Shown here piece by piece: positions 26,478 to 43,495 of a stretch of DNA of 64,000 nucleotides. A model generated the notes under the pieces. It was not told the origin of the DNA, ran no database searches, and saw only the letters and a list, made by a program, of their open reading frames with translations. The stretch spans positions 190,067 through 254,066 of the forward strand of contig JADLKE010000002.1 in assembly GCA_015657505.1 (NCBI GenBank), written 5' to 3'. The position numbers and the translations under genes are program-made. Every line of letters starts with the position of its first letter. The stretch's first letter is position 1. This DNA comes from Ignavibacteria bacterium (GTDB taxonomy: Bacteria > Bacteroidota > Ignavibacteria > Tepidaquicellales > Tepidaquicellaceae).

Positions 26478-29400
26478 TTATTTTACAAGTATCATTCTCT
26501 TCACGTCAACGAAATCTTTAGATTCCAGGCGGTAGAAATAAACGCCGCTGGAGAATTCCGCACCGTTGAAATCAACAGAGTAAATTCCCGCCTGTTTCAC
26601 CTCGTTTACCAGCGTCCTGATTTCCCTTCCGAGCACGTCGTATATTTTAAGCGTTACGAGTCCCTGTTTCGGAAGAGCGAAATTAATCTTCGTTACGGGA
26701 TTGAACGGATTAGGATAATTCTGCGCCAGTTCATACTTATCGGGAATCGCGCTTGTATTGCCGCTGAGACCCGTAAGAGTTGTAAGCGTGAAGCATACGT
26801 TCGGTCTGTTCGACTGCGCAGAGCCGCTCGTCATCGTACAGCCTGTCTGGTTATCCGTATAATATCCCCGCGTCATGTTTGGAGCGGCTGTCGAATAAAC
26901 AGGCGAATAGGCTGTGTACGAAGAATTATCGAAGCATACCTCAACGAGAAGGTTGCTCGTCCCGTCGTACGCAAAATACGGAGTGGTCATATTAATATAC
27001 TGCCAGCCCGTTCCGGGTACCGTATAGGTTCCCGTGAATCCCGTCGTCCAGCCTGATGTCACCCAGGCGGAAAGGGACGTGAGAGAGGTATGCTGGAATT
27101 TCACGCTGAACCCGCTCATTAACTGGCTCGATGCCGAGATAACGTTGAATCCGATTTTTGTAATCGCGCTGTTGACAGCCGCGCCGCCTGCCGTAAGTTC
27201 GGCGGCTGTGAAGAGCATCTGTGTCCTTCCGTCCATCCAGTAAGTGGTGAACGGATAGTTCGAAGTTGCAGATCCGGTTCCGATACAGCAGTTGACCAGA
27301 TTTATTATCTTGAATTTATATACACCGGTTGAATCCGTGTTGTGCATGCTTGAGTTGTCTCTTGCGAAAATTCTGTAGAATACAGAGTCGTTGTAATTCA
27401 CCTGCGGCTGCGAAGAATTGAACGCGGCGGCGAAATTCGAACCGGATGTATTCAGCAATTTGAAATGCTTTATTCCCGTCGATGTGTTGTTGATGTACCA
27501 GCGCACCCATACGGAGTCAATTCCAATATTATCCGTCGCAGATGCCGTCACTGTTGCCGGCCATACCGATTTTGGAACGTCCTGTAAACCAGTATGAGTT
27601 ATTACAGGCTTTACGTTATCAGTTGACGCGGTAAATGAGTAATAGTTCGCCGGAGCGCCGCCCGGAGCCTTTGCTGTTCTTCCCAACGAGTCGATTGTGC
27701 TGATGTAATATCTGTAAACCGCTGACGAACCGTTTCCGGGAATGCTTGCCGACCAGTTGAAACCGCCTGTATTGGTCATAACAATGCTGTCCGTAAAACT
27801 CGTGCCTCTTGTCCAGAAGAGTTTGGTTTTTCCGGTCACTAAACCTGAGTTCAGGGTATTTATTGTCGCGTTCACTACGTACGGTCCCGCAAGGTTTTCG
27901 GTATTCGGAAGTTGATTGTGTGTGATTGCAGGTCCTAAAGGTACTCCGCGTGTCAGAAGCAGAGAACAGTCGCCGAATATGTTGTACTGTTCCATCATCT
28001 TAAGTCCTTCACCGCTGCTGCCTCCGTTAATGTCCATCGCCGCCATGAGGCCGAAGAAAGAAATCGCTCCCGCTGTTTTCTTCGATTGTCTTCCAAGATG
28101 TCTCATCGCCGCCATTTGCATGTCGCAGGGAGGAACCCAACTTGCATTTGTAGAGGATGCGTATATCGTAACGCAGCCTTTTGCATTTGCGGTGTCGCCC
28201 GCTCTAAGCAATGCTTCGGCAAGACATTCGTTAAGTGTAAAGTTTCCGTTCAGACAGGCTACGTCAACCAGGAAGGGCTGTCTCCAGCCGTTTGCCAGCT
28301 GATACGCGTTTGATACGGAAAATCCCGTATTGCTCCAGGATGTTCCCGAACCGTGACCGATATAGTTCAATACGTACCTTCCGTCGTTCAGACTATTTAT
28401 GAGCGTCTGAGGCGTCGCAACCGGTCCGTTTACTTTATCGACCTGTGTGAATCCGTGAGCCATAAGCGTGTCTCTTACCCAGTTCATTCTGATTGAATCG
28501 GCATACGGAGGCGAACCGCCAACATCCGGACCGCCGATTCCGGTACCTTTTGTATACCACGATGCGCCGAATTCTATATCTCTTTCAAACTTAATAAATT
28601 TCTTCGCGACGTAATCAACGCTAGCCGCGTTCTGACAGGAAATTCTCGAAATGAACGCGTCGGGATAAGCGTCATTTCCCGCCAGTTTTACATAGCAGGG
28701 ATCCGATGGAGCGGATTCGTACTGACCGTTCAAGGTCGGAACATCCGCAACGTCACCGACTAATATAATGTACGTTACGGAACCCGCGGAATTGTACATG
28801 TTCTGTATGTATGTCTTTATCGCCGTGTTTCCCGTTCCGGTCGCTGCCGGATATTCCGCTACGGTTACATTCAGTCCTCTCGATTGTTTCCATTGCACGA
28901 GCGGCTGTATTGCCGTCATGTATGAAGTCGGACATATAATAAGCATCTTGCCGGGTTCGGGTATCGAGTCGTATCTTGAATCTCCCGTACCGTAATTCAG
29001 GAACATGTCCCTGTAAATTCCCGCGAACTCGCTCGATACTCTTGTCAGGGGATTCAACCTGAGCAGAGGATTCACGACTTTTTTATTATTGTCAGAAAAG
29101 ATTTCTACCGTTATTTTCTTTGTAATTTTCAGTTTGCCCTGCACGGGATTATATTGCATGGGATTAAACTGAACGACCATTCCCCTGAAGTCCCTTAAAA
29201 CATACGGAGTGTCAAAGGAAATATTATCTTTCGGATAATAACTGTCCGTTGTATATACACCGCTGAAAGTGTAAGGAACGGTATTGGGGTCAATGTCTCT
29301 CGTGAAATGCCCTTTTGAAGGCATCACGGGAAGAGTGGAGACTGTTTCCGTTTCCTGAGAAAGTATCCTGTAATTCATCGCCGTGTTGTCGGGAATCAGT

Positions 29401-29681
29401 AGGCTTCTCTTGTAAGTAAGCAATTCAGGATTGCCTTTCTCCATCAGCCACGACATATCGGGCGCGGACACGGAGATATAAGTGCTGCCGTTAATTTTTA
29501 TTTCCTTCGAATCGAATCCGCCGAATACATACTCAAGTTTAGTGTATCCGCTTCTTGATTCGATTACCTTTACCGTTATACCTTCACCTGCGCCGCTTTG
29601 CGGAACAACATTCGTAAATGCAGAATTTGAAAATGCAAACAGAAGCGCAAGGATAAATTGGGGAAGTAGATGTTTCATCAT
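26478..29681 (-). CDS. C25 (gingipain-family) cysteine peptidase with propeptide-like N-domain, Ig-like domains and T9SS CTD
   Basis: 1067 aa with a signal peptide and a Propeptide_C25-like N-terminus (...VLRDFRGMVVQFNPMQYNP...). The C25 core has YIILVGDVADVPT, PSDPCYV and His/Cys motifs NYIGHGSGTSW / VDVACLNGNF. C-terminal LAQNYPNPFNPVTKI...KRMILVK. Confidence 0.8.
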   Translation of the reverse strand: MMKHLLPQFILALLFAFSNSAFTNVVPQSGAGEGITVKVIESRSGYTKLEYVFGGFDSKEIKINGSTYISVSAPDMSWLMEKGNPELLTYKRSLLIPDNTAMNYRILSQETETVSTLPVMPSKGHFTRDIDPNTVPYTFSGVYTTDSYYPKDNISFDTPYVLRDFRGMVVQFNPMQYNPVQGKLKITKKITVEIFSDNNKKVVNPLLRLNPLTRVSSEFAGIYRDMFLNYGTGDSRYDSIPEPGKMLIICPTSYMTAIQPLVQWKQSRGLNVTVAEYPAATGTGNTAIKTYIQNMYNSAGSVTYIILVGDVADVPTLNGQYESAPSDPCYVKLAGNDAYPDAFISRISCQNAASVDYVAKKFIKFERDIEFGASWYTKGTGIGGPDVGGSPPYADSIRMNWVRDTLMAHGFTQVDKVNGPVATPQTLINSLNDGRYVLNYIGHGSGTSWSNTGFSVSNAYQLANGWRQPFLVDVACLNGNFTLNECLAEALLRAGDTANAKGCVTIYASSTNASWVPPCDMQMAAMRHLGRQSKKTAGAISFFGLMAAMDINGGSSGEGLKMMEQYNIFGDCSLLLTRGVPLGPAITHNQLPNTENLAGPYVVNATINTLNSGLVTGKTKLFWTRGTSFTDSIVMTNTGGFNWSASIPGNGSSAVYRYYISTIDSLGRTAKAPGGAPANYYSFTASTDNVKPVITHTGLQDVPKSVWPATVTASATDNIGIDSVWVRWYINNTSTGIKHFKLLNTSGSNFAAAFNSSQPQVNYNDSVFYRIFARDNSSMHNTDSTGVYKFKIINLVNCCIGTGSATSNYPFTTYWMDGRTQMLFTAAELTAGGAAVNSAITKIGFNVISASSQLMSGFSVKFQHTSLTSLSAWVTSGWTTGFTGTYTVPGTGWQYINMTTPYFAYDGTSNLLVEVCFDNSSYTAYSPVYSTAAPNMTRGYYTDNQTGCTMTSGSAQSNRPNVCFTLTTLTGLSGNTSAIPDKYELAQNYPNPFNPVTKINFALPKQGLVTLKIYDVLGREIRTLVNEVKQAGIYSVDFNGAEFSSGVYFYRLESKDFVDVKRMILVK

Positions 29682-29931
29682 AATATATGATTATAATTTT
29701 ATTATTCTTTAATTTATGAAAGATATTTTCTTCTTGAAAGTGGAAAATATCGAATGCGGAACATTATAGTTCACTTTTTTATGGCGTATTATTGATCCTG
29801 TAATTCTTTAATATAATGAGATGATTGCTTTACCGACGGAATATCGCTTGATTTATCCCGTATCGCGCGGGAAATCGATGTTTGCATGTACAGGTATTTA
29901 ATATGAATTATAAAAATAAATGGTTAGTATA

Positions 29932-29968
29932 ATAAAAAATCCGGTTATCGCTCTGCAACAACCGGATT
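29932..29968 (-). terminator. probable terminator of the 42282->30073 gene array
   Basis: AATCCGGTT-13 nt loop-AACCGGATT followed by T6 on the minus strand, about 105 nt after the flippase stop. Confidence 0.55.
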
Positions 29969-30072
29969 GGTTTTAAATAAGAAAGGGTAATTCTTATTTT
30001 ATCTCATCCATCTACTACAAACATAAGTACATTATTCTTATTTGTCAAGAGAAAAATAAATAAAGTTATACT

Positions 30073-31539
30073 TTAGGTGCGATTTATAAATATTGATTTT
30101 ACAGTGGTTAATTTTATAGCGCCGGATATGTTTAAAGAAAAGATAAAAAATATTATGAGGATAAATGAAATAATTATTAAAATCGTGTTACCGAAACATA
30201 ATGAGGAAATGAAATAAAGCAAATAGCAAATCCCCGCAAACACAGCAATGACAAGGATTTTGGAGGTTTCATAATCAATTTTACAAATTTTCTGCGAGCG
30301 GAAGTATAGATAGACAAGCATTATTAAGTAAGTAATCAGTGTTGAGCCCGCCGCTCCTGTCATTCCGTATTTTGGTATCAGCAGAAAATTAAGAATGATG
30401 TTGGCGATGAATCCGAAAAGGGCCGTGAGAAAGAGTTCTCCCGTTCTGTTCGCGTAAAAAGGAGCGACACTCATCGCGGAATACAAGCCGGAGAAAAAGT
30501 AAGCGAGAAGAACTATCGGTATTATTACGAGTCCGCTCTGATATCTCGCATCGAGCAGCGAAAAGTTTCCGAAAGAAATTTTTACGACCGGTGCCGTAAA
30601 GAAAGAGAACACAAGGAACATCAGGAGACCCGCGAATACAAGATACGTAAAAATTTCCGATACAAGTTTTTTGTTCTCCGGATTTTTTTCAAGATTCAGG
30701 AAGTAAGGCGTCCACGAAAATCTGAATGCCGCCACGAGCAGAGACATTACCGAGGCGAGCCTGTAACTCGCGCTGTAAATTCCGACCACTTCTTCGCTAT
30801 AAAAATACTTCAGAAAAAATCTGTCTGATATATCAATTATCAGTATGAACAAGCCGATGTAAATGAATTTGTTCCCGTACAATACAAGGCGTTTCGCCGT
30901 ATCGAAAGAGAATCTGAATGCAATGTGTCTCGCGGTAACCGCAATCCCCGCCGCGAAAGTAACAACAACCGAAATTATGTAACTGTAGAAAATCGCTTCA
31001 ACGCCCGCGCCGAAACCCGCTATCAGAGCGAAATTCGCCGCGACGTTCACGAAAACCGAGAGCAAAGTCAGGTACAGGTACTTTTTCGCGTCAAGTTCGG
31101 CTCTCAGAAGCAGCAAAGGAAAACGGAAAAGCGTATCAGTAAATAGCAGCAGAGCCAGAATTTTTAAGAGTTTGATTCCCAGTACTGAATCCTCAAATTT
31201 TATCAGTGATGAAATCGACGGAGTAAGGAAATAGAACGCGGCAGAGAAGACAAGTGATGATGCCGACAACATTATCAATGTTGTCGAATAGACAGTTTTC
31301 TTCTCCGAATCATCCCTGCTGTCAATGAAAAACTTTATGAACGCCGTTTCCTGACCGTATATATAAATCAAAATAACGAAAAGCCATACTGACTGAACAA
31401 TATTGTAAACGCCGAGTTCGGCAGGAGCGAAACAGAACGTATAAAGCGGTAGCAGCAGGAATGATATCGCTTTGTTAGCGAACAGACCTATGCCGTATAT
31501 CGCGGTTTGAGAGAACAATTCTTTTACGTGCCTGCTCAA
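30073..31539 (-). CDS. Wzx/MOP-type oligosaccharide flippase
   Basis: 488 aa with ~12-14 TM and a polysaccharide-biosynthesis-protein N-terminus (FSQTAIYGIGLFANKAISFLLLPLYT). Confidence 0.8.
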   Translation of the reverse strand: MSRHVKELFSQTAIYGIGLFANKAISFLLLPLYTFCFAPAELGVYNIVQSVWLFVILIYIYGQETAFIKFFIDSRDDSEKKTVYSTTLIMLSASSLVFSAAFYFLTPSISSLIKFEDSVLGIKLLKILALLLFTDTLFRFPLLLLRAELDAKKYLYLTLLSVFVNVAANFALIAGFGAGVEAIFYSYIISVVVTFAAGIAVTARHIAFRFSFDTAKRLVLYGNKFIYIGLFILIIDISDRFFLKYFYSEEVVGIYSASYRLASVMSLLVAAFRFSWTPYFLNLEKNPENKKLVSEIFTYLVFAGLLMFLVFSFFTAPVVKISFGNFSLLDARYQSGLVIIPIVLLAYFFSGLYSAMSVAPFYANRTGELFLTALFGFIANIILNFLLIPKYGMTGAAGSTLITYLIMLVYLYFRSQKICKIDYETSKILVIAVFAGICYLLYFISSLCFGNTILIIISFILIIFFIFSLNISGAIKLTTVKSIFINRT

Positions 31540-32588
31540 ATTCCGTTCTCCGAATATAATTCTTCAAGCCTCTTGTTGACACTTTCAAACGAATGATATT
31601 TTTCCGCCCACGCTCTTCCTTTTTCGGAATAATCTCTGAGAATCGATTTATTCTCGAGAATACCCGCGATAGTGTTCTTCAATCCGTCTATATCCGAGCA
31701 AATAAATGGATTTTCAGGAATGAAATTCAGATACTCCTCGTAGAATTCCGTTATTGTCGGAAGACCCATAGACAGATTTTCAATAGAGTTTTTTCCGTAT
31801 CCCGAACCGCCCATCAGACCACCGACCTGGTCAATCGCGAGGCTGCAGCCGCGTTTAATTTCGAGCAGTTTCGAGCGGGAAACGTTTTCAGCGAGAATGA
31901 ACTCGAAATCGTATTTCCTTTTCAACTCTTCGATAACCGGTATAATCCTGTCCGTTCCTTTATACAGGCGGTTTGTCGGGGAATGTATTATTTTAACCTT
32001 GTCCTCAACATTAAAACGGTATTCGAATTTCTTCACGTCAAAAGGAAAGAAAAGATAATTGATATTCTTGTGTAATCTTATGTGGTCAAACTCAACGGTA
32101 AGATTCAGCCTGCTCATTTCGTCGAGTTCGCGGAATATGCCGCGCGTTCTCAAATCGCTTCCGAAATAACAGCAGACAATTTTCTTCCCGAGTTTATTTA
32201 TCTCTTTAGCGAATCTCAGGTCCCTGTAGAAGTCCATTCCCCCGTCGAAATGATAAACGTCAAAATCATAGAGTTTATTTTCTTCGATGAACTTTTCAAT
32301 TTTGCTTGTATTTTTCAGGTCGCGGAGTTTGAAATATATTTTCTCCGCGGTATTTTTTGGCTCGTAATACTTGAGGCTTGTAATCTTTGAATCCCGCCAT
32401 TGCTTGGCAATCCTGCCCGAGGGAAGTCTGAAGCCGAGAGTGAGGTCTTCGTCGAAGTTCAGCGTGTTTTGATAAATCGTTACGAGTCTTGCATAGTGGC
32501 CGTTTTCGGACTGCATCCTCGCGAAATCAAGCGGCATTCCCGCAAAGTTCTGAGGAGCTATATGTAATATGCGCTTACTCAACGCCAA
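31536..32588 (-). CDS. putative GT-B fold glycosyltransferase
   Basis: 350 aa. C-terminal half resembles GT1/GT4 donor-binding region (YGKNSIENLSMGLPTITEF). 4-nt overlap with the flippase. Weak assignment. Confidence 0.45.
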   Translation of the reverse strand: MALSKRILHIAPQNFAGMPLDFARMQSENGHYARLVTIYQNTLNFDEDLTLGFRLPSGRIAKQWRDSKITSLKYYEPKNTAEKIYFKLRDLKNTSKIEKFIEENKLYDFDVYHFDGGMDFYRDLRFAKEINKLGKKIVCCYFGSDLRTRGIFRELDEMSRLNLTVEFDHIRLHKNINYLFFPFDVKKFEYRFNVEDKVKIIHSPTNRLYKGTDRIIPVIEELKRKYDFEFILAENVSRSKLLEIKRGCSLAIDQVGGLMGGSGYGKNSIENLSMGLPTITEFYEEYLNFIPENPFICSDIDGLKNTIAGILENKSILRDYSEKGRAWAEKYHSFESVNKRLEELYSENGI

Positions 32589-33312
32589 GCAGTCTTGATA
32601 TATTTCGGTGAAATATCAATTCTTTTTCTTCGCTGCTAATGTTTAGACTTTCGATAACAGGTATGTACATTTTCGGAAGTCCGAGATTGTAATCGCTTCC
32701 GAATATTACCCTATCAGCGCCGACAGTCTTCACGACCTGATTCACGAAATGGAATTCCCTTACGGATTCCGTTCCGAGATAAACGTTCTTCAGTCCGCTC
32801 TCTTTTACCGCGGCCGCGCAGGACGTGCAAAGCGAAGGCTGGTCGCCTCCGAGATGCGCTATTATAACGTTAAGTTTCTTTCTTTTCTTCGCCGCCTCAA
32901 TCGGGTACTCAAAACCCGCTATTTCCTGCCATCTTCCGCAGTGAACGATGACGGGGAAATTATTCTCTTCGGCAATATCAAGATACTTCGCGTATGCCTT
33001 ATCCGTCACCCTCTTTTTCTGAAACGAGGGATGTATCTTGAATGCTTTGATATCTTTCAGGTTCTTTTCAATGAATGAATCCAGTTTTTCGTCATCGGGA
33101 TTAATCCAGCAAGCGAAATGAAACGTGAACTCTTTCTGAGATTTGATTTCATTCAGAAGTTCTTCGTTCATAAAGGTGTCGCACGGCAGAGCAACGGCTG
33201 AATCAATTCCAGAGTCTTTCATAACTTTAACAGCATCGCTGACCGTCGTGGCGTAGTCAAGAAACACCCCGCTCCATTTCCCGATATGTATGTGTCCGTC
33301 AATGATCTTCAA
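32575..33312 (-). CDS. amidohydrolase-family metal-dependent hydrolase (TIM barrel)
   Basis: 245 aa with N-terminal IDGHIHIG metal motif, VIVHCG and a ...FGSDY tail. Confidence 0.65.
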   Translation of the reverse strand: MKIIDGHIHIGKWSGVFLDYATTVSDAVKVMKDSGIDSAVALPCDTFMNEELLNEIKSQKEFTFHFACWINPDDEKLDSFIEKNLKDIKAFKIHPSFQKKRVTDKAYAKYLDIAEENNFPVIVHCGRWQEIAGFEYPIEAAKKRKKLNVIIAHLGGDQPSLCTSCAAAVKESGLKNVYLGTESVREFHFVNQVVKTVGADRVIFGSDYNLGLPKMYIPVIESLNISSEEKELIFHRNISRLLGVE

Positions 33313-34222
33313 TTGAAACTGTCCCCTTTTTTAAACGTTTCTTTATAATTTATTTCCTCCAGATTTTCATCCCTTACATCGTAGTTCATTATGTAACCGT
33401 CCTTGCATCTTACGATTATGTAGTCTTCGTTTACGTCCGCGATCACTCCCGGCTTCTCACCGGAATCGCCTGCCGGATAAGGTTTCGAACGGAGTATCAG
33501 AAATTTTTTCCCGCCGAACCCGGTAAATGCCGTAGGATACGGGTGCGCGAGTGCTCTGATTTTATTATAAACCGTTTTGACGCTTTCGTTCCAGTCAATT
33601 TTCCTTTCGGCATCCGTAATCATCCTGTTCGCTTTTTCCTTGCGAGGAGGTTTCTGCTTTCTGAAAATGTCCTTCTTTCCGGAAATTAATTTTTCGAAAA
33701 CTTCAATAAGAAGGTTCGCGCAGTTGAATGAACACTTGTAATAAAGCGTGTTCACGTCGTCCTCGTCATCAATTATAACGCTCTTCTCGAGAAGTATATC
33801 ACCCGAATCCACTCCGCTGTCAATCTTGTGAATAGTCAGGTACAGAGTATCGTTTCCGTCCATAATCGCGCGCGATATGGGAGCCCTTCCCCTGTATTCA
33901 GGAAGTTTGCCGCAATGTATGTTCAGTATTCCGTATACAGGAACATTAAAGACGTCTTCTTTTATTATCTCCATGAAACCCGCGCAAATACCGGCGTCGA
34001 ACCCTGTGAATCTTTCCTTGATTTCGGAAATGCTGTCCGTCTTTATGAGTTCTATTCCGTGCGCGCCGCAGAGGCTATCAATCTTTTCGTAGAATTTATG
34101 CTTTTGATTTTCATAATCGTACGTCCTGTGAGTTACAACAAAAGCGGGGGATATTTCATCATTATAAGGTCGTTAAGGCACCTCAGGCTCATTTCTCCGT
34201 ATGCAAGAAAAAAATATTTCAT
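33309..34222 (-). CDS. ArnA-N-like sugar-nucleotide formyltransferase, interrupted by a -1 homopolymer frameshift
   Basis: The track ORF 33309..33974 begins just before the NIHCGKLPEYRGRAP active-site motif (formyltransferase HxSLLPxxRG type). The missing N-terminal domain is encoded upstream from ATG 34222 (MKYFFLAYGEMSLRCLNDLIMMKYPP). The frame is lost in the G5 run 34146-34150, and one extra base restores a 304-aa protein. Confidence 0.7.
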
Positions 34223-35184
34223 TTGTTAAAATATTTTTTGTACCATTTGTACGTTCTTAAAATTCCTTCCGTCAAATCAATCTTAGGCTTGAAGCCGAGA
34301 ACTTTCTGCGCTTTCTCTATGCTCGGTATCCTTAGTTCGACGTCAACGTAATTCTTCGGTATGTATTTAATCTTCGATTTCGTTCCCGTCAGAAGCACAA
34401 TTTTTTCGGCAAGCGAACTGATTGTTATCGTGCCTTTTGGATTTCCAATATTGTATATTTCACCAACCGCCTTTTTGTTAGTCAGGCAAAGAATAGTTCC
34501 CTCAATCATGTCATCGATATAGCACCACGCTCTTATCTGGTCGCCGTCGCCGTGTATATGTATGTCTTTATTAAGAACCGCGTTCTTTATAAAAATCTGA
34601 ATGGCGCCTTCGCCAATCTGCCCCGGTCCGTAAATGTTGTAAGGTCTGATTGACACGGCGGGATATCCTCTCGTCTTATAATAACTGTAAAGCAAATGCT
34701 CGCCGGAAACCTTGCTTATAGAATAAGTCCATCTCCCTTCACCGACCGGAGCGAGGTTCGTGTTCGATTTCTCGCTTGATTTATAGGCGTACGCGCCGAG
34801 GACTTCGCTGGTAGAAAAATTGACGACCCGTTCGAGTTTGCCGCTGTATTTTTCGAGAGCCCTGACGAAATTAAACGTGCCGAGTATGTTTACTTCCATG
34901 GTTTTTACCGGATTGTTTATCACTGTATCGACGCCCGCTATCGCGGCGAGATGCAGGGCAATCTGCGGCTTGAAATCTTCAGTTGCTTTCTTCAACGCTT
35001 CGTAATCGGTTATGTCGCCGTTGACGATTTTGACGTTCTTTAGATTAATCTTCTTATACTTGAGTGAATCCCTCGCGAAAATGTCGTAAATCAGTATTTC
35101 ATTTTCCTTGCTGAACAACTCTGCGAGCCTGCTGCCTATGAATCCGCCTCCGCCCGTTAGCAGTATTCTTTTATTCTTAATCAT
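34219..35184 (-). CDS. NAD-dependent SDR, ArnA-C-like UDP-glucuronate (oxidative) decarboxylase/epimerase family
   Basis: 321 aa with TGGGGFIGSRL, STSEVLG and RWTYSISK (compare the RWIYSVSK catalytic region of E. coli ArnA as I recall it). Confidence 0.65.
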   Translation of the reverse strand: MIKNKRILLTGGGGFIGSRLAELFSKENEILIYDIFARDSLKYKKINLKNVKIVNGDITDYEALKKATEDFKPQIALHLAAIAGVDTVINNPVKTMEVNILGTFNFVRALEKYSGKLERVVNFSTSEVLGAYAYKSSEKSNTNLAPVGEGRWTYSISKVSGEHLLYSYYKTRGYPAVSIRPYNIYGPGQIGEGAIQIFIKNAVLNKDIHIHGDGDQIRAWCYIDDMIEGTILCLTNKKAVGEIYNIGNPKGTITISSLAEKIVLLTGTKSKIKYIPKNYVDVELRIPSIEKAQKVLGFKPKIDLTEGILRTYKWYKKYFNK

Positions 35185-35191
35185 GATTTTT

Positions 35192-36157
35192 CTATAAATT
35201 TAATGTATAACTTTTTCTTAAAAATCCGTCCGCCATGAACTTTTTCTTGAAGTCGAAAAGACCCTGCAGCAGTTCATTTCCGACGTTCGAAGTACCGATA
35301 TCGTAAAGCCTGAAATTATTCAGTTTTGACCATTCAATTGTCTTGTAAAGCAGGTAGTCCGAGACCCTGTCCTTCTTGTGCTCCTCGTCCGCGGCGAGAT
35401 AGAAATTCAGCACGACATCGTTCTTGACGAGAAACAAAGTGCAAATACCCGCTATCTGTCCGTTTACGCTTGCCGTGAATAGTTTTACCCTTTCGCTCAA
35501 TACGGTTTTCAGATAAACAAGTTCCTCGAGCGTGTGTGTAGGCTTGACATGCTTCAATTCCCTGTTCGCGTAAAGTATCCCGTAAAAATCGCGAAGGCTG
35601 TCTTCGGTTATGTTCTCTTCTATCAGGTCAATCCCGATAATCTTCGCTGATTTCTGTATCGACCTTTTCTTCGGATTCTTTAGTTTCTCAAATTCGAAAC
35701 TTTTCAGGTCCACGATGTTGGTTATCGAATATCTCGTAACGTTGAATCCAGAAAGAATGAGCGCGTACTCGTATTCCTCATTCGCGTTCCTGTGGTATAT
35801 GTACGGGGAGTTCCTGATAAGGCACTTCTTGAATTTCTGAGACTGAAGGTACTCCCTGAACTTGCCGATTGCTTCAATGAAATCGGTTATCTTAAGTTTG
35901 TCTCTCCACAGGAAGCCTCCGAAACTCACACCGTCGCAGGAAACGTATGACTTGCCTTCATTATCCGTGATTTCGTTGCCCGGAATTATCGCGATGATTT
36001 TGTTTTTATCCCTGAAAAGCAGATGATGCCATTTGATGTTCTTCCTGAAAATATCGTTGTAGCAAAGGAACCTCTTGTCGTAGAACATGTTATAATCCGC
36101 AGCGAGAAACTCATCCCACTCATGGCTTTTTGATATGTCTATTCTTTCTATTTCCAA
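35192..36157 (-). CDS. FemAB-like / GNAT-fold (aminoacyl or acyl) transferase
   Basis: 321 aa. C-terminal pattern LLYKTIEWSKLNNFRLYDIGTSN...GLFDFKKKF is typical of the FemAB-like acetyltransferase family. Confidence 0.5.
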   Translation of the reverse strand: MEIERIDISKSHEWDEFLAADYNMFYDKRFLCYNDIFRKNIKWHHLLFRDKNKIIAIIPGNEITDNEGKSYVSCDGVSFGGFLWRDKLKITDFIEAIGKFREYLQSQKFKKCLIRNSPYIYHRNANEEYEYALILSGFNVTRYSITNIVDLKSFEFEKLKNPKKRSIQKSAKIIGIDLIEENITEDSLRDFYGILYANRELKHVKPTHTLEELVYLKTVLSERVKLFTASVNGQIAGICTLFLVKNDVVLNFYLAADEEHKKDRVSDYLLYKTIEWSKLNNFRLYDIGTSNVGNELLQGLFDFKKKFMADGFLRKSYTLNL

Positions 36158-37824
36158 TTGTTTCTGTATAATTCGTATCCCGGAGACTTCTTCACCAGCG
36201 TGTAACCGCCGGGAATAAATGTTTTTGAATCGGGATAATCGCTTCTGTTAATTTTATCCTTCTCGACGATTATATTGTAAACACCGCTCTTTCCCGCTAT
36301 CGCGTTTCTAACCGCATCGGTCCCGCTCTTAGTGTCAAGGAATTCAAAATCGTAGTTTCCCCTGTTCCATCCGAGGTCGAGCCCTTCGAAATAGAAACTG
36401 AACTGCGGATTATGCCTGTAATTAGATGCAACGTATATCAGGTTCCTGCTTCCGCTCTTTTCAATTTCCTCCTTTATATCTGTAATCTTGAAAGAGTTCT
36501 CCCAGTAAGGAATCCTGACGGCGTAAAGCGTGTTCACGAAAATCAAAAATACTAAAATAAAAGCATAGTATATACTCGTAATGCCTGACCTCTTTTTGAT
36601 TATCAGTACTATTGACGCGGCGGAAATCAGCGCCCACAATACGGCAATGACCAGCAGCAGTTTCAATCCGCCGTTTTGAATTTTAAATCCTTCTTCTATC
36701 CTGAAGTAATTCAGCGCCGACCAGAAAATGTTCAACGCCGTGAGCGATAAAAGTGCGGTCTTCTCTTTGATGCCGGCTTTATCGATGTTTCTCACATAAT
36801 CGGCTGCCAGAAACGCACCGGGAACGAGCATAAGAAGTATATATACTTCAAGTTTAGTCCTGAAAAAAGTAATTATGAGCAGTCCCGTCACGAACCAGAC
36901 GAGCACGAATATCTCTTTCACGCCCGCATTCTTAAAATTAATAATCTTCTTTGCAGCGCCGAACAGCACTACCACTCCGTAAGGCAGAATTGTGAGCAGA
37001 TAATTTATATGGTATAAATAACCCGACCCTTTCGTGTTATGCTCTACGCCGAACAGGGCTCTTTCGTATATGTGATAGAAGAAAAAGTAATTCGCGAATT
37101 CCTTTCCGTAAACCGCGAACATGTACGCGTGCCACGGAGCCGCGATTAATATTCCAATCAGGGTAAGCATAAACAAATCCGAAAACGAGTATTTGAATTT
37201 TCCGCGCGCGGAAAGCATGACCAAAAAAATTACCATCGGAATGAAAAAGCCAACGAGAATTTTCACCATCAGGCAAAGCCCGAAAACGACCCCCGCCAGA
37301 TAGTTATATTTTCTTTCGCCCGTGTCGGAATACCTTAATATGAAATAGAAAGAGGATATTATCAGAAGCGAGTAAGGGATATCGAACTGGAACCTGTTGC
37401 AGAAAATACTAAAGATAATATTGCTCGATAATATAACGGCTGCAATTATTCCCGCGCGGGCATCGTAAATATTTCTGCCGAATATCATCATTACCCACAG
37501 CAGTACCGCGCTCAGTATAAAAATAAAAATTTTGAAACTGACGTTATTCATCCCGAACAGCGAAGTGAAGGCGTATCCCGCCCAGATGAGAAGCGGCGGG
37601 TGCGAGCCTGAATAAAATCCTCCGATTGAATGCGCGCTCTGGTCGATTATATCACCCGAAACCTTTATCGATAGTACACGCGTCGCGTACATACCCTCGT
37701 CCCAGGGCTGTATATCGGTTACGATCATCGTATGTATTTTCGCGGCAAATAAAAAAACGACGAGAAAGAAGAAGACATGCTTCAGATTTTTCCCGTCGTC
37801 AAAATATTTTAATATTCCCGTCAT
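36148..37824 (-). CDS. ArnT/PMT-family (GT-C) membrane glycosyltransferase
   Basis: 558 aa with ~12 TM, the acidic first-loop motif WDEGMYA and a periplasmic C-terminal domain. Confidence 0.75.
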   Translation of the reverse strand: MTGILKYFDDGKNLKHVFFFLVVFLFAAKIHTMIVTDIQPWDEGMYATRVLSIKVSGDIIDQSAHSIGGFYSGSHPPLLIWAGYAFTSLFGMNNVSFKIFIFILSAVLLWVMMIFGRNIYDARAGIIAAVILSSNIIFSIFCNRFQFDIPYSLLIISSFYFILRYSDTGERKYNYLAGVVFGLCLMVKILVGFFIPMVIFLVMLSARGKFKYSFSDLFMLTLIGILIAAPWHAYMFAVYGKEFANYFFFYHIYERALFGVEHNTKGSGYLYHINYLLTILPYGVVVLFGAAKKIINFKNAGVKEIFVLVWFVTGLLIITFFRTKLEVYILLMLVPGAFLAADYVRNIDKAGIKEKTALLSLTALNIFWSALNYFRIEEGFKIQNGGLKLLLVIAVLWALISAASIVLIIKKRSGITSIYYAFILVFLIFVNTLYAVRIPYWENSFKITDIKEEIEKSGSRNLIYVASNYRHNPQFSFYFEGLDLGWNRGNYDFEFLDTKSGTDAVRNAIAGKSGVYNIIVEKDKINRSDYPDSKTFIPGGYTLVKKSPGYELYRNNWK

Positions 37825-37862
37825 TAACTTTTCTTAACAGCAAGAACCGCTATTTCAAAGCA

Positions 37863-38759
37863 TTAGAAATTATAGCCGAGCGAAATCGAATTCCCCGAGC
37901 CGAATCCAATCGAATACGGCTGGAAAGCGTAGTCAACGTATAATGACTTGTACTTAAGACCAAGCCCCGCGGAGAAACTTTTATTTTCGTAACCAGTCTG
38001 ATAACCGCCTCTTAAAAATATGAAATCCTTGTAACCTCCCTCGATCCCTATGTGCGTGTGTAAAGCGCCCCCGTCAAGAACTTTAAAACCGTCTAGCGCG
38101 CCTGTAATAGAAAAGTTGTCCTTCCTGTACATGTAACTCGCGCCAAGCCTAAGCGATGTCGGCAGTTTCGTCTCGGAATTTAAAAGCGCGTTCATAGAGC
38201 CAACATTGGCCAGGACAACGGCGAATGAAACATTGTTGATTTTATAATTCGCGCCGAAATCAAGACCGTAACCTGACGCCTCATCGATGTATATTTTCTC
38301 GTAAAGCATTTTTACCGTAATCCCCGCGGTGAAATTGTTCTGGATATCATAGCATAGGCTTATGCCTCCCGAAAAGTTATCCGAGTTGAATGTTTCTATC
38401 GGAGCGCCGGGATTATTCCTGACTTCGATGTCGCTGACGGTTGTCTTCAGGAGACCGATTCCAATTCCGAATTTATTCAGCCTGAATTTAGCGCCAACAA
38501 AATTCGTCGTCATATCCATCATTGTCTTATTGAACATTGCGGTAACGTTTCCGTTTTCGGTGGCGTTTACTCTGGCAGGATTGTATATGTAAGCTGTCCC
38601 GTCGTCCGCGAGCGACACGAATGCTTCGCCCATCGCGATGGAGCGGGCTCCTATACCGAGTTTCAGGAAAGACAATCCCGTATTTCCCGCGCCGTCATTT
38701 TGTCCGAAAGTTATTCCCGCAAAGAATAATATCAGAGTCGTTATGAAAATTTTTCGCAT
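37863..38759 (-). CDS. PorV/PorQ-family-like outer-membrane beta-barrel
   Basis: 298 aa with a signal peptide and the N-terminal motif GLSFLKLGIGARSIAMGEAFVSLADDGTAYIYNPA. Alternating beta-strand pattern and a terminal Phe. Confidence 0.55.
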   Translation of the reverse strand: MRKIFITTLILFFAGITFGQNDGAGNTGLSFLKLGIGARSIAMGEAFVSLADDGTAYIYNPARVNATENGNVTAMFNKTMMDMTTNFVGAKFRLNKFGIGIGLLKTTVSDIEVRNNPGAPIETFNSDNFSGGISLCYDIQNNFTAGITVKMLYEKIYIDEASGYGLDFGANYKINNVSFAVVLANVGSMNALLNSETKLPTSLRLGASYMYRKDNFSITGALDGFKVLDGGALHTHIGIEGGYKDFIFLRGGYQTGYENKSFSAGLGLKYKSLYVDYAFQPYSIGFGSGNSISLGYNF

Positions 38760-38792
38760 ATAAATAAACTAATACTTCAAGTTATGAATAAA

Positions 38793-39839
38793 TTATTTGA
38801 ATTTAAAAGCAATTCCGATATTCTGAGCAGGCTTGTGCGTGTACGGCTCAATCTGGAAACTGTAATCCAGACCGATATTAATGTCCTTCGTGAACGATTT
38901 TGTCAGGCCTATACCCGCTCCGGGCTGAATGTTTCCCCAGAAGTCATCAGATTTAAAGTCCATTCTGTCAATGCCCGCGCGTATTTTCACGTAATCGTTC
39001 AGGTTTATTTCGCCTCCTACCTTGAGCGCGAAATTGTAATTTCTCTTGCTGTATGACTTAACGCCGAGAGTATCTGTCGTCTCGAACCTCGGATTCACGT
39101 AAGTATCAAGACCGACAGAAACCAGACCGAGTTTCTTCGGCAGGTTGTAAGTTCCTCCGAACGCTACGAGAACGGGAAATTTTTCTTCAGATGTTGTTCC
39201 GCTCGTTCCGTAAACATTCTGTCCCGTAGTCTCCCATTTATACTTCACTCCAAGGTCCCTGACTGCCAGACCGAACGACAAGTCCTTGCTCGCTAAGTAA
39301 GTAAAGCCTGCGTCAAAACCCACGCTCGTTGTAGTTACTTCTTCATAAAGTTTAGAGTAATACAGTTTAAATCCCACGCCTATGGATAAATCGGGCGCTA
39401 CGAGGATGCTCATACCCATAAGGAATTGATTTTCATAAGTTCCGAGCATTCCTATCGAACGGGCGTCATTGTCTCTTCCGTCAATATCCGAAACCCCCGC
39501 GTTAATCCAGGAAAGACTGATGCCAGCGGTCTGCTTGCCCCCTGACAGTGAAAACTTTTTCGCGAATGAAACGAAGTTTAGTTTTCTGTCAAGACTCAGG
39601 AATGTATAACCGAGATTCACGACTCCGTTTTCCTGAAAACAACTGAGAGACGGATTGTAGTATCCTGACACGTCGCCGTACCTGTCCGAAACGAGCGTGT
39701 TTCCCATTGAAAGACCTCTCGCGCCGAAGCCCATCCTGGCAAAACTTCCGGGGTAACTGCCCAATTGAGCGTTCGCGCCTGAGAATGCCGCCAGAATCAG
39801 TAATATCGCTAAGTATTTTTTCATATTCTGAAAACTCAT
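38793..39839 (-). CDS. second PorV/PorQ-like outer-membrane beta-barrel (more divergent)
   Basis: 348 aa with a signal peptide and FARMGFGARGLSMGNTLVSDRYGDVSGYYNPS, a beta-barrel-like sequence. Confidence 0.4.
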   Translation of the reverse strand: MSFQNMKKYLAILLILAAFSGANAQLGSYPGSFARMGFGARGLSMGNTLVSDRYGDVSGYYNPSLSCFQENGVVNLGYTFLSLDRKLNFVSFAKKFSLSGGKQTAGISLSWINAGVSDIDGRDNDARSIGMLGTYENQFLMGMSILVAPDLSIGVGFKLYYSKLYEEVTTTSVGFDAGFTYLASKDLSFGLAVRDLGVKYKWETTGQNVYGTSGTTSEEKFPVLVAFGGTYNLPKKLGLVSVGLDTYVNPRFETTDTLGVKSYSKRNYNFALKVGGEINLNDYVKIRAGIDRMDFKSDDFWGNIQPGAGIGLTKSFTKDINIGLDYSFQIEPYTHKPAQNIGIAFKFK

Positions 39840-39846
39840 TAAATTT

Positions 39847-41460
39847 TTATTTCATTAAAATAACTTTTCCCCAGAAAGGAGTCTCGTCGTCAACCTCTAT
39901 TCTGTAGAAATAGACAGCGTTTGCCGGTATGTAACCGTCGTCGTTCCTTCCGTCCCATATCGCGAAGTTTACGTCGTTGTTTGTCCTCGTCGCGTTCTGT
40001 ATAACCGTTCTGACGGGATTCATTCCGAAGTCGAAAATCTTTATTGTTACTTTCGAAACAGGTTTGCTTGTCTTGAAGAACAGCCGCGTTACTTCATTGT
40101 TCGGTGAAAAAGGATTCGGAGCCGCGTACGTTTCCGAAGTAGATGTCAAATTGCCGCAAGCCCTGAAAATCTTCCAGGGAGAAGACCACGGAGATACTGT
40201 CAATTTTGTGCGCAGCATTCCGTCAGCGCTTCCGAAATACAATGTATCGTTAATGTAATTCCCCGAATAAAAACTGCTTGACCTGCATAAATCCTTCGAT
40301 ACGGGATCGGCAATCAGCGAAGGTTTCGACCAGTCGAATTTTCCGAAATTGGCGCGCCACATTCCCCCGTCAGTGTAACCGAATACGATTGAATCCTTCG
40401 AACTTATTCCGTTCGGTCTGTAGCCGCCGAGCGTGTATTCCCAGGAATACCCGTTATTCGTGGAATAACTCAACGCGTCCACTTCGTTATTATCATTGGC
40501 TTTTCTCGATGCCGCCCACCAGACTTCCCTGCTTCCGTACTTCTGTACGTGAAATTTCACAACGAAATTCCCCGAAACCCTGTTTGTTCCGCTTCCAGAG
40601 TTCTGAAAATTATACTTCCTCCAACTTACACCCCAGTCTCTCGAAATGTTAATTCCGTTCGCGGAGCCGGCGAGTAGAGTTGAATCGTTCACCGCTACAA
40701 CCGAAAAGAGCCTGTGATTCAGGTTTATATTCGGATTCAAAACGAAGTTATAAACTCCTCCCGTGTATATGCTGTCGAGGTCGTCCGGAGGCAGCAGCAC
40801 TCTTTGCCAGGATACCCCGTAATCAGTGGATTTTCTGAGACCTCCGGCGAAACTCGTAATCCAGATAGTGTAATTTAAAGTATCGCCCTTTGTACGGGAA
40901 ATTGCAATATCGTAAGACAGATTCTGCTGAGGTACGACTACGGGCAGTGCGTGAATGTTGTTCAATCCGTATGTAACAACCGTATCGGTCAATCCGTCCA
41001 TCGGCTGCGGATATGAATTCCAGGAACGGCCGTAATCAGTCGAGACCTTGATTCCCGTTCCGGTAGCGACATTTTCACCGTCAATTAACTCACTTATCGC
41101 GGTAGCCGCGACGAACACTCTGTCTTTTACGTTCAAACCCGCGACGTCGTCCGTCCCGAAAGGTTCGGACTCGATGTAATAATCAAAACTGTTGAACCTG
41201 TCCGTCGTGCGCATCAGTCCGCTTCCCGTTCCGAACCAAACAGTATCACCCGAAAAAAAGATGTCCGTAACGAAGTTGCTTATCGGGCATTTAGAATTCT
41301 TCGGATTCACGACGACCGCCGTAAGTTTCGCGTTCTTGCCGGAAGTCTTAACGAAAACATTTTTGAACTTCCCCAGCGAGAAATTTTCGGGTATTGTCTG
41401 CGAAAACAGGTTGACTCCCGCGGTTAAAATCACGAATAAAAATATTTTTCTTAATATCAT
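39847..41460 (-). CDS. Asp-box (BNR-like) beta-propeller protein with CTD/FlgD-Ig-like C-terminal tail
   Basis: 537 aa with a signal peptide and the motifs STDYGRSW, STDYGVSW, SRDWGVSW, STNNGYSW. Tail APNPFSPNNE...VYFYRIEV...KVILMK. Confidence 0.6.
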   Translation of the reverse strand: MILRKIFLFVILTAGVNLFSQTIPENFSLGKFKNVFVKTSGKNAKLTAVVVNPKNSKCPISNFVTDIFFSGDTVWFGTGSGLMRTTDRFNSFDYYIESEPFGTDDVAGLNVKDRVFVAATAISELIDGENVATGTGIKVSTDYGRSWNSYPQPMDGLTDTVVTYGLNNIHALPVVVPQQNLSYDIAISRTKGDTLNYTIWITSFAGGLRKSTDYGVSWQRVLLPPDDLDSIYTGGVYNFVLNPNINLNHRLFSVVAVNDSTLLAGSANGINISRDWGVSWRKYNFQNSGSGTNRVSGNFVVKFHVQKYGSREVWWAASRKANDNNEVDALSYSTNNGYSWEYTLGGYRPNGISSKDSIVFGYTDGGMWRANFGKFDWSKPSLIADPVSKDLCRSSSFYSGNYINDTLYFGSADGMLRTKLTVSPWSSPWKIFRACGNLTSTSETYAAPNPFSPNNEVTRLFFKTSKPVSKVTIKIFDFGMNPVRTVIQNATRTNNDVNFAIWDGRNDDGYIPANAVYFYRIEVDDETPFWGKVILMK

Positions 41461-41478
41461 TTTAAATTCATTTTTCTT

Positions 41479-42282
41479 TTAATTTGGCCTGACAAATTTT
41501 ATGCTGTCTTTGTAAGTCGTGCTGAACACGTCCGAACGGTCCAGCGCGGTGAACCAGTACTTATAATAACCGTACGAAGAATCGGGTTCGGCATAAGATA
41601 CGGTGTTAGTATATGAATAAACATTATTTCCGTTGTACGTCATAGCGTACCTTCCTATGAAATTCCCGCTCGGTCTGTAAGCGTCCATGTAAACGAACGC
41701 GATATCGCAGGGTCCGTCCGCGTCTGTCGCTGTAAGAGAAAGAGTGAGATTTACGGAACCGGATAACGGTCTGACGACGCTGTCGGGTATGTCCGGGTTT
41801 GAAACAACGGGAGCAACATTCGCTGTGTTTTGCACATAAAATGAACTACTCAGCATGTTGCTGCTCAATCCCTGCTCGTTAGTTGCAATTACCTGAACAG
41901 TATAATCTCCGACTAGCAGACAGGAAACGCTGCCAAGGGTAAGAGTAGCGGCGTATTTCTTGCCTCCCGCGGTGTCGTAAGCATATACGAGATTTTGCGC
42001 GCCGTAACTGTTCAATTTCGGGTCCGTTACAGTGCAGGTAACGCCTGTCAAAGGCGTGCCGTTGTTGACGTCCGCGACTGCGGAAATGTAAAATTTAATT
42101 ACAGGTGAACCTGATGTAGTTTTCACGGTATCAGGCACCAGTACAAGATTCGAAAGTATCGGGGAATCGTATGTAGGATCAATAACGCCGTCATCCTTTT
42201 TCTCGCATGAAAATAACACCACGCAAGCCGATAGTAAAAATAAGGCGAAACTTGCTCTTTTTAACATTTTAATTTTATTCAA
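41479..42282 (-). CDS. lipoprotein with Ig-like domains, unknown function
   Basis: 267 aa with lipobox LLSACVVLFSC followed by EKKDD. No family recognised. Confidence 0.5.
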   Translation of the reverse strand: MNKIKMLKRASFALFLLSACVVLFSCEKKDDGVIDPTYDSPILSNLVLVPDTVKTTSGSPVIKFYISAVADVNNGTPLTGVTCTVTDPKLNSYGAQNLVYAYDTAGGKKYAATLTLGSVSCLLVGDYTVQVIATNEQGLSSNMLSSSFYVQNTANVAPVVSNPDIPDSVVRPLSGSVNLTLSLTATDADGPCDIAFVYMDAYRPSGNFIGRYAMTYNGNNVYSYTNTVSYAEPDSSYGYYKYWFTALDRSDVFSTTYKDSIKFVRPN

Positions 42283-42519: not shown

Positions 42520-43404
42520 TCAAATTCCGTTTTTTAGAATCGCACCCACTTCATCGAATACGCTTCCCTGCGCGAGTCCATAGCCATTCAGTTTATCGGT
42601 ATTCATCGATACATCAGGCACCTGTACCAATCCCTTAACGGACTGGCACGAAACAGGAATAAGCAGATTCTTGTCAAATCCGCCTGCTTCGCAAATCATT
42701 TCTCCGATTTGAAGTCTCGATACCCTGTCTCTGCCGCCAAAGTTTACAACCTCGTTCCGAACGGGCATTCCGCATAATCTTGATATCATATTCGCCGCAA
42801 GCCGTATTGAAAGCGGCGTCCTGAACTGGTCGTAAAACATACGAACTTCTTTTCCCGCCTTCAGGTTCTCGTACGTGATGTGAAAATTGTTTCTGCTGTG
42901 ATTAAGACCGAATCCTATAAGCAAAGCGGTCCTTAATATTATGTAGTTATCGGAATTTCTCTGCACCGCGATTTCGCCCATAAGTTTGGATTCGGCATAT
43001 AAAGTCAGCGGATTCAACGCGCCGTTCTCGTCAGCCATTCCGCTTTCGGAATCCGCGTACACAAGGTCCGTTGATGTAAAAATCAGTTTTGAGCCGAAGC
43101 TGCCGCACAACCGCGCAATATTTTCAGTCGCCTCAACATTAAGTTTATACACTTCACTTCTCGGAAGACTTGCGCATATCTCGGGTCTGGAATAACAGGC
43201 AGTATGCACCACCGCGTCAGGTCTGAAATTTCCGAAAAGAAGCGACAATCTGCCATAATCGGTTATATCAACCTTTATCGAATCGAACTTATGGCAGTTC
43301 CCGGGATTCTCGTTATAAAGCGTCAGCAGTTCGTGTTCCGCGGACAATCTCAAGTTGAGATATTGACCCAGTAAACCGCTCCCGCCTGTCAGTAATATTT
43401 TCAT
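42520..43404 (-). CDS. RmlD-like SDR (dTDP-4-dehydrorhamnose reductase family)
   Basis: MKILLTGGSGLLGQ...YAESK. I prefer the ATG at 43404; the track start 43440 adds an unlikely leader. Confidence 0.7.
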   Translation of the reverse strand: MKILLTGGSGLLGQYLNLRLSAEHELLTLYNENPGNCHKFDSIKVDITDYGRLSLLFGNFRPDAVVHTACYSRPEICASLPRSEVYKLNVEATENIARLCGSFGSKLIFTSTDLVYADSESGMADENGALNPLTLYAESKLMGEIAVQRNSDNYIILRTALLIGFGLNHSRNNFHITYENLKAGKEVRMFYDQFRTPLSIRLAANMISRLCGMPVRNEVVNFGGRDRVSRLQIGEMICEAGGFDKNLLIPVSCQSVKGLVQVPDVSMNTDKLNGYGLAQGSVFDEVGAILKNGI

Positions 43405-43495
43405 AAGCAAATTTGTCTGAAATATAATAATTATATGCAATTAAGTATAGAATTAAATGACCGCTTTTGTTATGTTTGTGCATAATAAATAATTT

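Follow-up and report, generated by a model that had tools for sequence, protein, structure and literature searches.

How secreted proteins are fastened to the cell surface by the type IX secretion machinery (T9SS) is understood in only a few Bacteroidota, where attachment genes and anchor-glycan genes are scattered and have been linked to one another gene by gene. A 64,000-nucleotide (nt) stretch of an Ignavibacteria bacterium (contig JADLKE010000002.1, positions 190,067 to 254,066; here called the window) raises the question of whether the two sets can form a single unit. On its minus strand, eleven genes in tandem, running from 42282 to 30073, place a lipoprotein, a propeller protein with a T9SS C-terminal domain (CTD) and two PorV/PorQ-like outer-membrane barrels ahead of glycosyltransferases, sugar-tailoring enzymes and a flippase. 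The reading favoured here, to which we give about an even chance, is that the array encodes a PorQ/PorZ-like surface complex together with its own Vim-like linking-sugar pathway. From this likeness to the Porphyromonas gingivalis parts, we infer a role in cargo anchoring.

Together with a C25 peptidase gene that follows it, the array comprises twelve open reading frames (ORFs), whose coordinates stand as first read:

41479-42282, minus strand: lipoprotein of about 262-267 amino acids (aa) with Ig-like domains, from its lipobox and from ortholog matches to NF041940
39847-41460, minus strand: secreted single beta-propeller with a divergent T9SS type-A CTD, from a weak BNR/Asp-box signal and an AlphaFold2 (AF2) model
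38793-39839, minus strand: barrel A, PorV/PorQ-family-like outer-membrane barrel, 348 aa (NF033709, 77.2 bits)
37863-38759, minus strand: barrel B, PorV/PorQ family outer-membrane barrel, 298 aa (NF033709, 132 bits)
36148-37824, minus strand: polytopic GT-C glycosyltransferase, PMT_2/ArnT-like (PF13231, 65.9 bits)
35192-36157, minus strand: predicted FemAB/VimA-like (aminoacyl)transferase (Acetyltransf_6, TIGR03019)
34219-35184, minus strand: extended short-chain dehydrogenase/reductase (SDR), a nucleotide-sugar dehydratase/decarboxylase of RmlB / UXS / ArnA-C-like type (Epimerase, 176 bits)
33309-34222, minus strand: Fmt/ArnA-N-like formyltransferase, frameshifted, from a hidden Markov model (HMM) and alignment to a relative
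32575-33312, minus strand: cytoplasmic metal-dependent amidohydrolase (Amidohydro_2, PF04909, 68.9 bits)
31536-32588, minus strand: divergent soluble GT-B (group 1) glycosyltransferase, 350 aa, from ortholog Pfam matches
30073-31539, minus strand: Wzx-type polysaccharide flippase (Polysacc_synt families)
29968-29938, minus strand: intrinsic terminator closing the array, with a 14-bp stem, 6 GC pairs and a T-run
26478-29681, minus strand: gingipain-type C25 peptidase, 1067 aa, outside the conserved module (Propeptide_C25, Peptidase_C25, Por_Secre_tail)

The successive junctions of the array, read from 42282 to 30073, are +18, +7, +33, +38, -10, +7, -4, -4, -14 and -4 nt, which reproduces the range of -14 to +38 nt given in an earlier note on this DNA. 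That note had also placed the first terminator behind the last gene, and the site at 29968-29938 is indeed the sole strong terminator-like site after the array on the minus strand. Inside the array, weak terminator-like matches occur at chance level (18 seen, 19.7 expected from shuffled sequence). Matches in a sigma-70 promoter scan were also at chance level and are uninformative.

The strongest evidence that these genes belong together is comparative. When a genome collection was scanned with a profile of barrel B, 80 loci at 44-99% identity were recovered, nearly all labelled Ignavibacteria or Ignavibacteriae, with a few metagenome-assembled genomes labelled Bacteroidetes, Chlorobi or Kapaibacterium. 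Exact-protein look-ups added six more, for a total of 86 related loci (L001-L086) at 36-99% identity; the exact sequence of the window's barrel B was itself not on record. Upstream order was counted in the 59 loci with enough upstream sequence, and downstream genes in the 51 with at least 8.5 kb. The lipoprotein, propeller-CTD and barrel A genes precede barrel B in 59 of 59, the lipoprotein leading the array each time. Downstream, the FemAB-like gene is present in all 51 loci, followed in frequency by GT-C (46), amidohydrolase and GT-B (45 each), SDR and Wzx (44 each), formyltransferase (33) and the C25 peptidase (2). Dozens of genomes thereby keep the gene order, even where protein identity falls to 36%, and chance adjacency of the array genes is excluded.

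Four variants of the array define what is constant. Variant i is the window type. Variant ii is the window type minus the formyltransferase, and loci lacking this gene hold no remnant of it. Variant iii, a clade at 44-50% identity, continues from barrel B with FemAB, an EpsG/Wzy-like membrane protein, an AsnB-type glutamine amidotransferase, GT-B and Wzx, and has one or two small outer-membrane genes inserted after the propeller. Variant iv, a clade at 36-40% identity, is reduced to seven genes: lipoprotein, propeller-CTD, barrel A, barrel B, FemAB, GT-B and Wzx. Variants iii and iv both lack the GT-C, SDR, formyltransferase and amidohydrolase genes. The four outer-membrane genes with FemAB, GT-B and Wzx are the constant unit because they are common to all four variants; the Arn-like genes of the window array are lineage-variable accessories, not core.

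Several local features accompany these variants. The variant iii insert between propeller and barrel A is a lipoprotein of about 128 aa with a conserved WSSGTGDIAP motif, and some variant iii loci carry an additional 8-strand-type outer-membrane barrel of about 228 aa (inserts at L074 8281-8958; L078 2627-3310 and 3328-3714; L083 7856-8563 and 8569-8952; L082 8590-8982). Assignment of the 228-aa barrel as the lipid A deacylase PagL was rejected, as the one match is marginal (22.2 against 23 bits) and the His-x-Ser motif is unconserved in four orthologs. Some variant ii genomes have an AT-rich non-coding gap of 0.45-1.3 kb (28-33% GC) between the amidohydrolase and GT-B/Wzx (L031 15253-15708; L041 15302-15810; L032 9691-10995), which suggests a second transcription unit there. 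GT-B and Wzx are not downstream in L027, L044, L050, L055, L059 and L063. Upstream of the seven-gene variant, on the same strand (L085 1055-5612, L086 997-5541), lies a conserved set of genes for a CE4 polysaccharide deacetylase, a GT2 glycosyltransferase, a radical SAM protein, a DUF1207 protein and an M50 peptidase.

The array had been described as an island. Its composition matches that of the window, and its neighbourhood in the window and in distant relatives alike consists of nuo genes, an acyl-CoA ligase and DnaK, which together rule out a horizontally acquired island. The array is a vertically inherited core chromosomal operon of Ignavibacteria.

What, then, do the four outer-membrane genes encode? 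The barrels were scored against the PorV/PorQ family model NF033709 (cutoff 90 bits) and the equivalog models PorV NF033710 (250 bits), PorQ NF033711 (220 bits) and PorV2 NF052325 (325 bits). Barrel B passes the family model at 132 bits (162.7 bits for its L069 ortholog), and barrel A at 77.2 bits stays below it (80.5 bits in L069). Equivalog scores against these cutoffs are 47.6/250 for PorV, 74.5/220 for PorQ and 70.6/325 for PorV2 in barrel B, and 22.4/250, 51.7/220 and 48/325, respectively, in barrel A. By these scores both barrels are nearer PorQ than PorV, and they are 27% identical to each other. Faint PorP_SprF and DUF5723 matches occur among barrel A orthologs. The AF2 model of barrel B has 14 strands, and a Foldseek search pairs it with F. 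johnsoniae PorV (8gl6_F, E 3e-15, template-modelling (TM) score 0.76; 6h3i_F, TM 0.75) ahead of FadL (E 2e-7, TM 0.63) and TodX (TM at most 0.63). Family placement by HMM and the fold of barrel B together uphold the proposal that these are PorV/PorQ-like barrels, and the competing idea that FadL describes barrel B better fails on the fold comparison. No additional PorV-family paralogs or C25 domains lie near the module in the 84 loci L001-L084 or the window.

The propeller protein is laid out as a propeller over residues ~50-435 and a CTD over residues ~445-537 (nt ~39847-40128). Its AF2 model (predicted local distance difference test, pLDDT, 80) contains one propeller and a beta-rich C-terminal domain at residues 458-535, which we interpret from the model as immunoglobulin-like. 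The tail scores below CTD cutoffs (TIGR04183 16.3 bits against 23; FlgD_ig 17 bits). It is nevertheless recruited, at 68 bits, when jackhmmer starts from a cargo CTD of the window; the seven cargo CTDs described below reach 120-140 bits in that search. This CTD is the best-conserved segment of the protein (0.80 against 0.74), which would fit a role in docking beyond that of an export tag. In a Foldseek search of the PDB the first match of the model is PorZ (5m11, E 2.5e-10), but at TM 0.34/0.26 and a root-mean-square deviation of 23 Å. Weak sequence matches are to BNR, Sortilin-Vps10 and the F510_1955 glycosylhydrolase family, with no PorZ-named family among the NCBIfam matches. Of the claim that this protein is PorZ-like, a probable, divergent type-A CTD and the first rank of PorZ in the PDB fold search are retained, and the fold match appears non-specific. 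Searched singly against the PDB, the sequences of the propeller, barrel B and the FemAB-like protein gave no matches.

The lipoprotein at the head of the array has no Pfam match in its window copy, and 19 of 29 orthologs match NF041940, the short choice-of-anchor X motif of surface proteins. Residues S25, C26 and E27 (the lipobox Ser-Cys and the next Glu) are invariant, with EKKDD as the consensus after the Cys. Translation probably starts at ATG 42267 rather than TTG 42282. In the propeller and both barrels, a Gln follows the predicted signal-peptide cleavage site (Q21 of the propeller and Q20 of barrel B are invariant), a pattern reminiscent of the N-terminal glutamine rule known from Bacteroidetes.

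The remaining genes point to the synthesis and export of a lipid-linked sugar. Central among them is the FemAB-like protein, which matches Acetyltransf_6 (PF13480, 28.7 bits; gathering cutoff (GA) 22) and TIGR03019 at 31 bits, short of that model's own cutoff of 260. Its L069 ortholog matches FemAB PF02388 (42 bits, GA 24) and TIGR03019 (65 bits), and a PDB search with the ortholog profile reaches 9wqw, an aminoacyl-tRNA-dependent peptide synthase (E 7e-5). Consistent with its proposed membership of the VimA class, this is the database signature published for VimA, an N-acetyltransferase domain with TIGR03019 (PMC7468200). The flippase passes gathering cutoffs for Polysacc_synt_3 (PF13440, 66.6 bits, GA 23) and Polysacc_synt (PF01943, 56.9 bits, GA 28.2).

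The 350-aa GT-B is more divergent. The window copy has no family match, a single-sequence PDB search gave noise, and the family profile reaches GT-B enzymes in the PDB at only E ~0.3. Among 30 orthologs, 11 match Glycos_transf_1 (best 3e-5) and 10 match Glyco_trans_1_2; those in L085 and L086 match Glyco_trans_1_2. VimF, a glycosyltransferase in the published descriptions, belongs to the GT-B class, and the ortholog matches agree with the earlier assignment of this protein to it.

The accessory enzymes are assigned at family level. The GT-C reaches 57 bits with the ArnT equivalog (cutoff 567), and the SDR scores 168 bits as dTDP-glucose 4,6-dehydratase, 130 as UDP-xylose synthase and 117/777 as ArnA, all below equivalog cutoffs. 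We infer the amidohydrolase to be a candidate sugar N-deacylase. The formyltransferase is not intact. Its longest ORF spans 33309-33974, and the 29 codons that open the gene are read in a different frame at 34133-34222, their start overlapping the SDR stop as ATGA. Aligned with a relative that is 89% identical, the window copy has lost 1 bp from a C5 run near 34145-34149, which explains the frameshift; the intact ortholog in L001 scores 134 bits with Fmt and 107/777 with ArnA. Since an entire subclade lacks the gene cleanly, the frameshift may be real gene decay rather than a sequencing error. Across the array, the family assignments first made from the sequence alone are borne out at family level.

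The C25 peptidase is a different matter. Its domains and the 391-nt gap to the array agree with the earlier description of a 1067-aa C25 peptidase with a CTD after about 390 bp, and its CTD scores clearly above cutoff with the type-A CTD models TIGR04183 / PF18962 (38.7 and 39.6 bits). The peptidase was, however, counted as the array's member of the PorU class, and this part fails. It scores 50 bits against the PorU model NF033707 (cutoff 420), over the CTD only; its closest solved relatives are RgpB/gingipain R (E 3e-54); and it has its own strong terminator at 26460-26431. Its catalytic domain adjoins the array in 2 of 51 evaluable loci (L007 and L009, the two closest relatives), other apparent C25 matches in related loci being CTDs of different cargo. 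With a gingipain propeptide, a CTD-only PorU match, a separate terminator and no synteny, a role as PorU analogue is discarded, and from its sequence features the protein is classed as ordinary T9SS cargo encoded by a separate gene. It is one of seven proteins with canonical T9SS type-A CTDs in the window, about one per 9 kb (1599-3506, 14961-15890, 26478-29681, 51116-52582, 59048-60418, 60475-62340 and 62475-63992), which include M1 peptidase, glucose/sorbosone dehydrogenase-like, MAM-domain and gingipain-like C25 proteins. The divergent CTD on the propeller comes in addition, so that the earlier count of at least seven is confirmed.

The attachment systems of Bacteroidota provide the framework for interpreting the module. 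In P. gingivalis, the genes porQ, porZ, porU-porV, vim and wbp lie at separate loci. Both P. gingivalis and T. forsythia attach cargo C-termini through an amide bond to an aminoacylated sugar, either 2-N-seryl-3-N-acetylglucuronamide or glycyl mannuronic acid, and the last steps of linking-sugar synthesis fall to VimE (a CE4 deacetylase), VimA (N-acetyltransferase-type, with TIGR03019 FemAB similarity) and, optionally, the AsnB-type amidotransferase WbpS (PMC7468200). For VimF, the proposed role is to transfer the linking sugar onto a pentasaccharide carried by undecaprenyl pyrophosphate, which is then flipped and joined to O-antigen (PMC13086638). PorZ, a two-propeller protein with a CTD, is reported to be held on PorQ and to hand anionic lipopolysaccharide (A-LPS) to the sortase PorU (PMC8545088).

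Set against the PorQ-PorZ arm, the array is alike in encoding a CTD propeller beside PorV/PorQ-family barrels and in a PDB fold search that ranks PorZ first for the propeller and PorV first for barrel B. It is unlike it in having one propeller, two barrels with only one CTD protein, an extra lipoprotein and no PorU, in barrels that fall below the PorQ and PorV equivalog cutoffs, and in carrying glycan genes in the same operon. By published signatures and descriptions, the array shares with the Wbp/Vim pathway a VimA-like FemAB enzyme, a glycosyltransferase and a Wzx flippase, with a WbpS-like AsnB-type amidotransferase in variant iii and a CE4 deacetylase of the VimE family a few genes upstream of the array in variant iv. 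It differs in lacking WbpA, WbpB, WbpD and WbpE genes; the window variant has Amidohydro_2 instead of CE4, plus a GT-C, SDR and formyltransferase absent from the Vim pathway. Type-B CTD proteins paired with PorP/SprF-like barrels (SprB-SprF, PG1035-PorP) offer another parallel, a CTD protein encoded beside its own surface-holding barrel (PMC9143113); here the CTD is instead type-A-like, the barrels are best placed in the PorV/PorQ family, and the pair sits inside a glycan operon. Taken in aggregate, the relationship to the P. gingivalis machinery appears to be a resemblance of parts and logic, short of demonstrated orthology. The earlier note had proposed one analogue of each attachment and linking class in a single unit; by resemblance, each class is found in the constant core, but the sortase is missing.

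If the favoured reading is correct, the pathway would begin in the cytoplasm, where an amino sugar would be N-deacylated and then aminoacylated by the FemAB-like enzyme. The GT-B would attach the aminoacylated sugar to an undecaprenyl-linked glycan, which Wzx would flip. At the periplasmic face, the GT-C (or the EpsG-like protein) would pass the glycan to its final lipid or lipopolysaccharide (LPS) acceptor for transfer to the outer membrane. The T9SS would export the propeller, whose uncleaved CTD would hold it on one PorQ-like barrel, as PorZ is held on PorQ. With the second barrel and the lipoprotein as partners, the propeller would present the amine-bearing glycolipid, to which the C-termini of CTD cargo would become amide-linked by a transpeptidase encoded outside the module.

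Several observations weigh against this reading. Its main weakness is that the module contains no transpeptidase: no peptidase or sortase lies inside it, nor within 10 kb of it in any other locus. The structural parallels are also imperfect. Both barrels are under the PorV, PorQ and PorV2 equivalog cutoffs; the propeller protein has one propeller domain, of a different repeat type and with a weak BNR signal, compared to two in PorZ; and BT4663 sensors and GH74 enzymes score nearly as well as PorZ in its fold search, where the PorZ match appears non-specific. On the sugar side, no aminotransferase or Wbp genes are found in the cluster, and FemAB-like enzymes (TIGR03019) occur in exopolysaccharide (EPS) loci too. 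Finally, a BLAST survey credits Ignavibacterium and Melioribacter with PorV, SprA and Plug and no other T9SS proteins (PMC11705866), and on this account PorU-type linkage is unproven in the phylum; sequence divergence could be the cause of the missing proteins. A more radical form of the idea is that the whole attachment branch is self-contained, with the propeller, barrels and lipoprotein coupling cargo to the aminoacyl-sugar lipid without a PorU-type C25 sortase. This is improbable; if true, it would mean a new transpeptidation or anchoring mechanism, and PorQ/PorZ-type parts and the linking-sugar pathway would be one ancestral unit.

Could the operon serve the cell surface without anchoring cargo at all? 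It might build a dedicated surface glycan or glycolipid (capsule-, EPS- or O-antigen-like), with FadL-type barrels that carry the lipid-linked product or place it in the outer leaflet, a FemAB-like enzyme that tunes sugar charge by adding an amino acid, and a propeller that is a glycan-processing or glycan-binding enzyme, T9SS cargo by happenstance and held by its partner barrel. We consider this unlikely, while granting it an appreciable share of the probability. The usual parts of a polysaccharide locus are here (Wzx, GT-B, GT-C or an EpsG/Wzy-like protein, SDR, amidotransferase), TIGR03019 FemAB proteins are defined by EPS loci, PorV is within the FadL fold class, and the propeller has the weak BNR, Sortilin-Vps10 and F510_1955 matches as well as structural matches to GH74. 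The lack of a sortase fits too. Yet no Wza/Wzc, ABC or synthase-type exporter is present, and to our knowledge no polysaccharide export system uses PorV/PorQ-family barrels. The minimal variant has only a lone GT-B and lacks a polymerase, which suits a single linking unit more than it does a polymer, and the unusually conserved propeller CTD ties the module to the T9SS.

Two further explanations each have only a slim chance. The ArnT-like GT-C might add an (aminoacyl-)amino sugar to lipid A or the LPS core and so alter outer-membrane charge, the outer-membrane proteins taking part in LPS remodelling. The GT-C, decarboxylase-type ArnA-C-like SDR, ArnA-N-like formyltransferase, candidate deformylase and flippase follow the same logic as the Arn (Ara4N) lipid A pathway, and a UDP-glucose 6-dehydrogenase gene lies 10 kb off. 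The cluster nevertheless lacks the ArnB aminotransferase and the ArnC GT2, every Arn equivalog score is far under its cutoff, and the formyltransferase is missing in about one-third of loci and frameshifted in the window. The Arn-like genes are moreover dispensable across the family: the outer-membrane genes, FemAB, GT-B and Wzx persist in variants iii and iv, where the Arn-like genes are absent, and an Arn pathway is for that reason rejected as the core function. The other explanation, of comparably low probability, makes the barrels and propeller plain PorV, PorQ and PorZ orthologs beside an unrelated O-antigen operon, the gene order being functionally meaningless. Membership of the PorV/PorQ family speaks for it, and the 'PorV' that the BLAST survey (PMC11705866) found in Ignavibacterium and Melioribacter could be one of the array barrels. 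Equivalog scores are, however, 3- to 11-fold under cutoff, barrel B, at 298 aa, falls about 70 residues short of the 367 aa of F. johnsoniae PorV, and the junctions between barrel B and GT-C and between GT-C and FemAB are tight or overlapping. Neutral adjacency would be unexpected, because the linkage survives four enzyme-set rearrangements over 36-99% identity.

Beyond the module, an RmlD-like reductase gene (42520-43440, minus strand) lies directly upstream, across a 237-nt AT-rich spacer. It is found in this position only in the closest relatives (L007-L009 and L014) and, because of this limited distribution, is placed outside the conserved module. Further out, two ORFs overlap on opposite strands (43313-43837, minus; 43496-44332, plus), neither with a family match. 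About 10 kb from the array, the UDP-glucose 6-dehydrogenase gene is flanked by two SDR epimerase/dehydratase genes (18190-19134, plus; 19136-20467, minus; 20491-21465, minus), a group that could supply UDP-glucuronate to the decarboxylase-type SDR. The single match in an Rfam scan of the window is a tRNA gene at 14700-14783 (minus strand).

Literature searches found no account of this operon, of a fusion of attachment-type and linking-sugar genes, or of T9SS anchoring in Ignavibacteria. A search on 'PorV2' gave nothing relevant, its sole apparent T9SS instance being PorV followed by the reference number 23. The coupling, of which the earlier note knew no description, is strongly conserved in relatives, and no published description of it emerged.

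Across a whole sister lineage, one operon locks PorV/PorQ-type barrels and a PorZ-like CTD propeller together with a VimA/VimF/Wzx-like pathway. If the proposed role in anchoring is correct, this would add an independent, comparative line of evidence for these parts functioning as a unit. The seven genes of variant iv define a minimal set that is open to test, and the lipoprotein is a partner unnoticed before. The operon offers an entry to T9SS surface anchoring outside Bacteroidota, with two cultured hosts, Ignavibacterium album and Melioribacter roseus. Within the lineage, the swaps of tailoring enzymes predict linking sugars that differ between clades.

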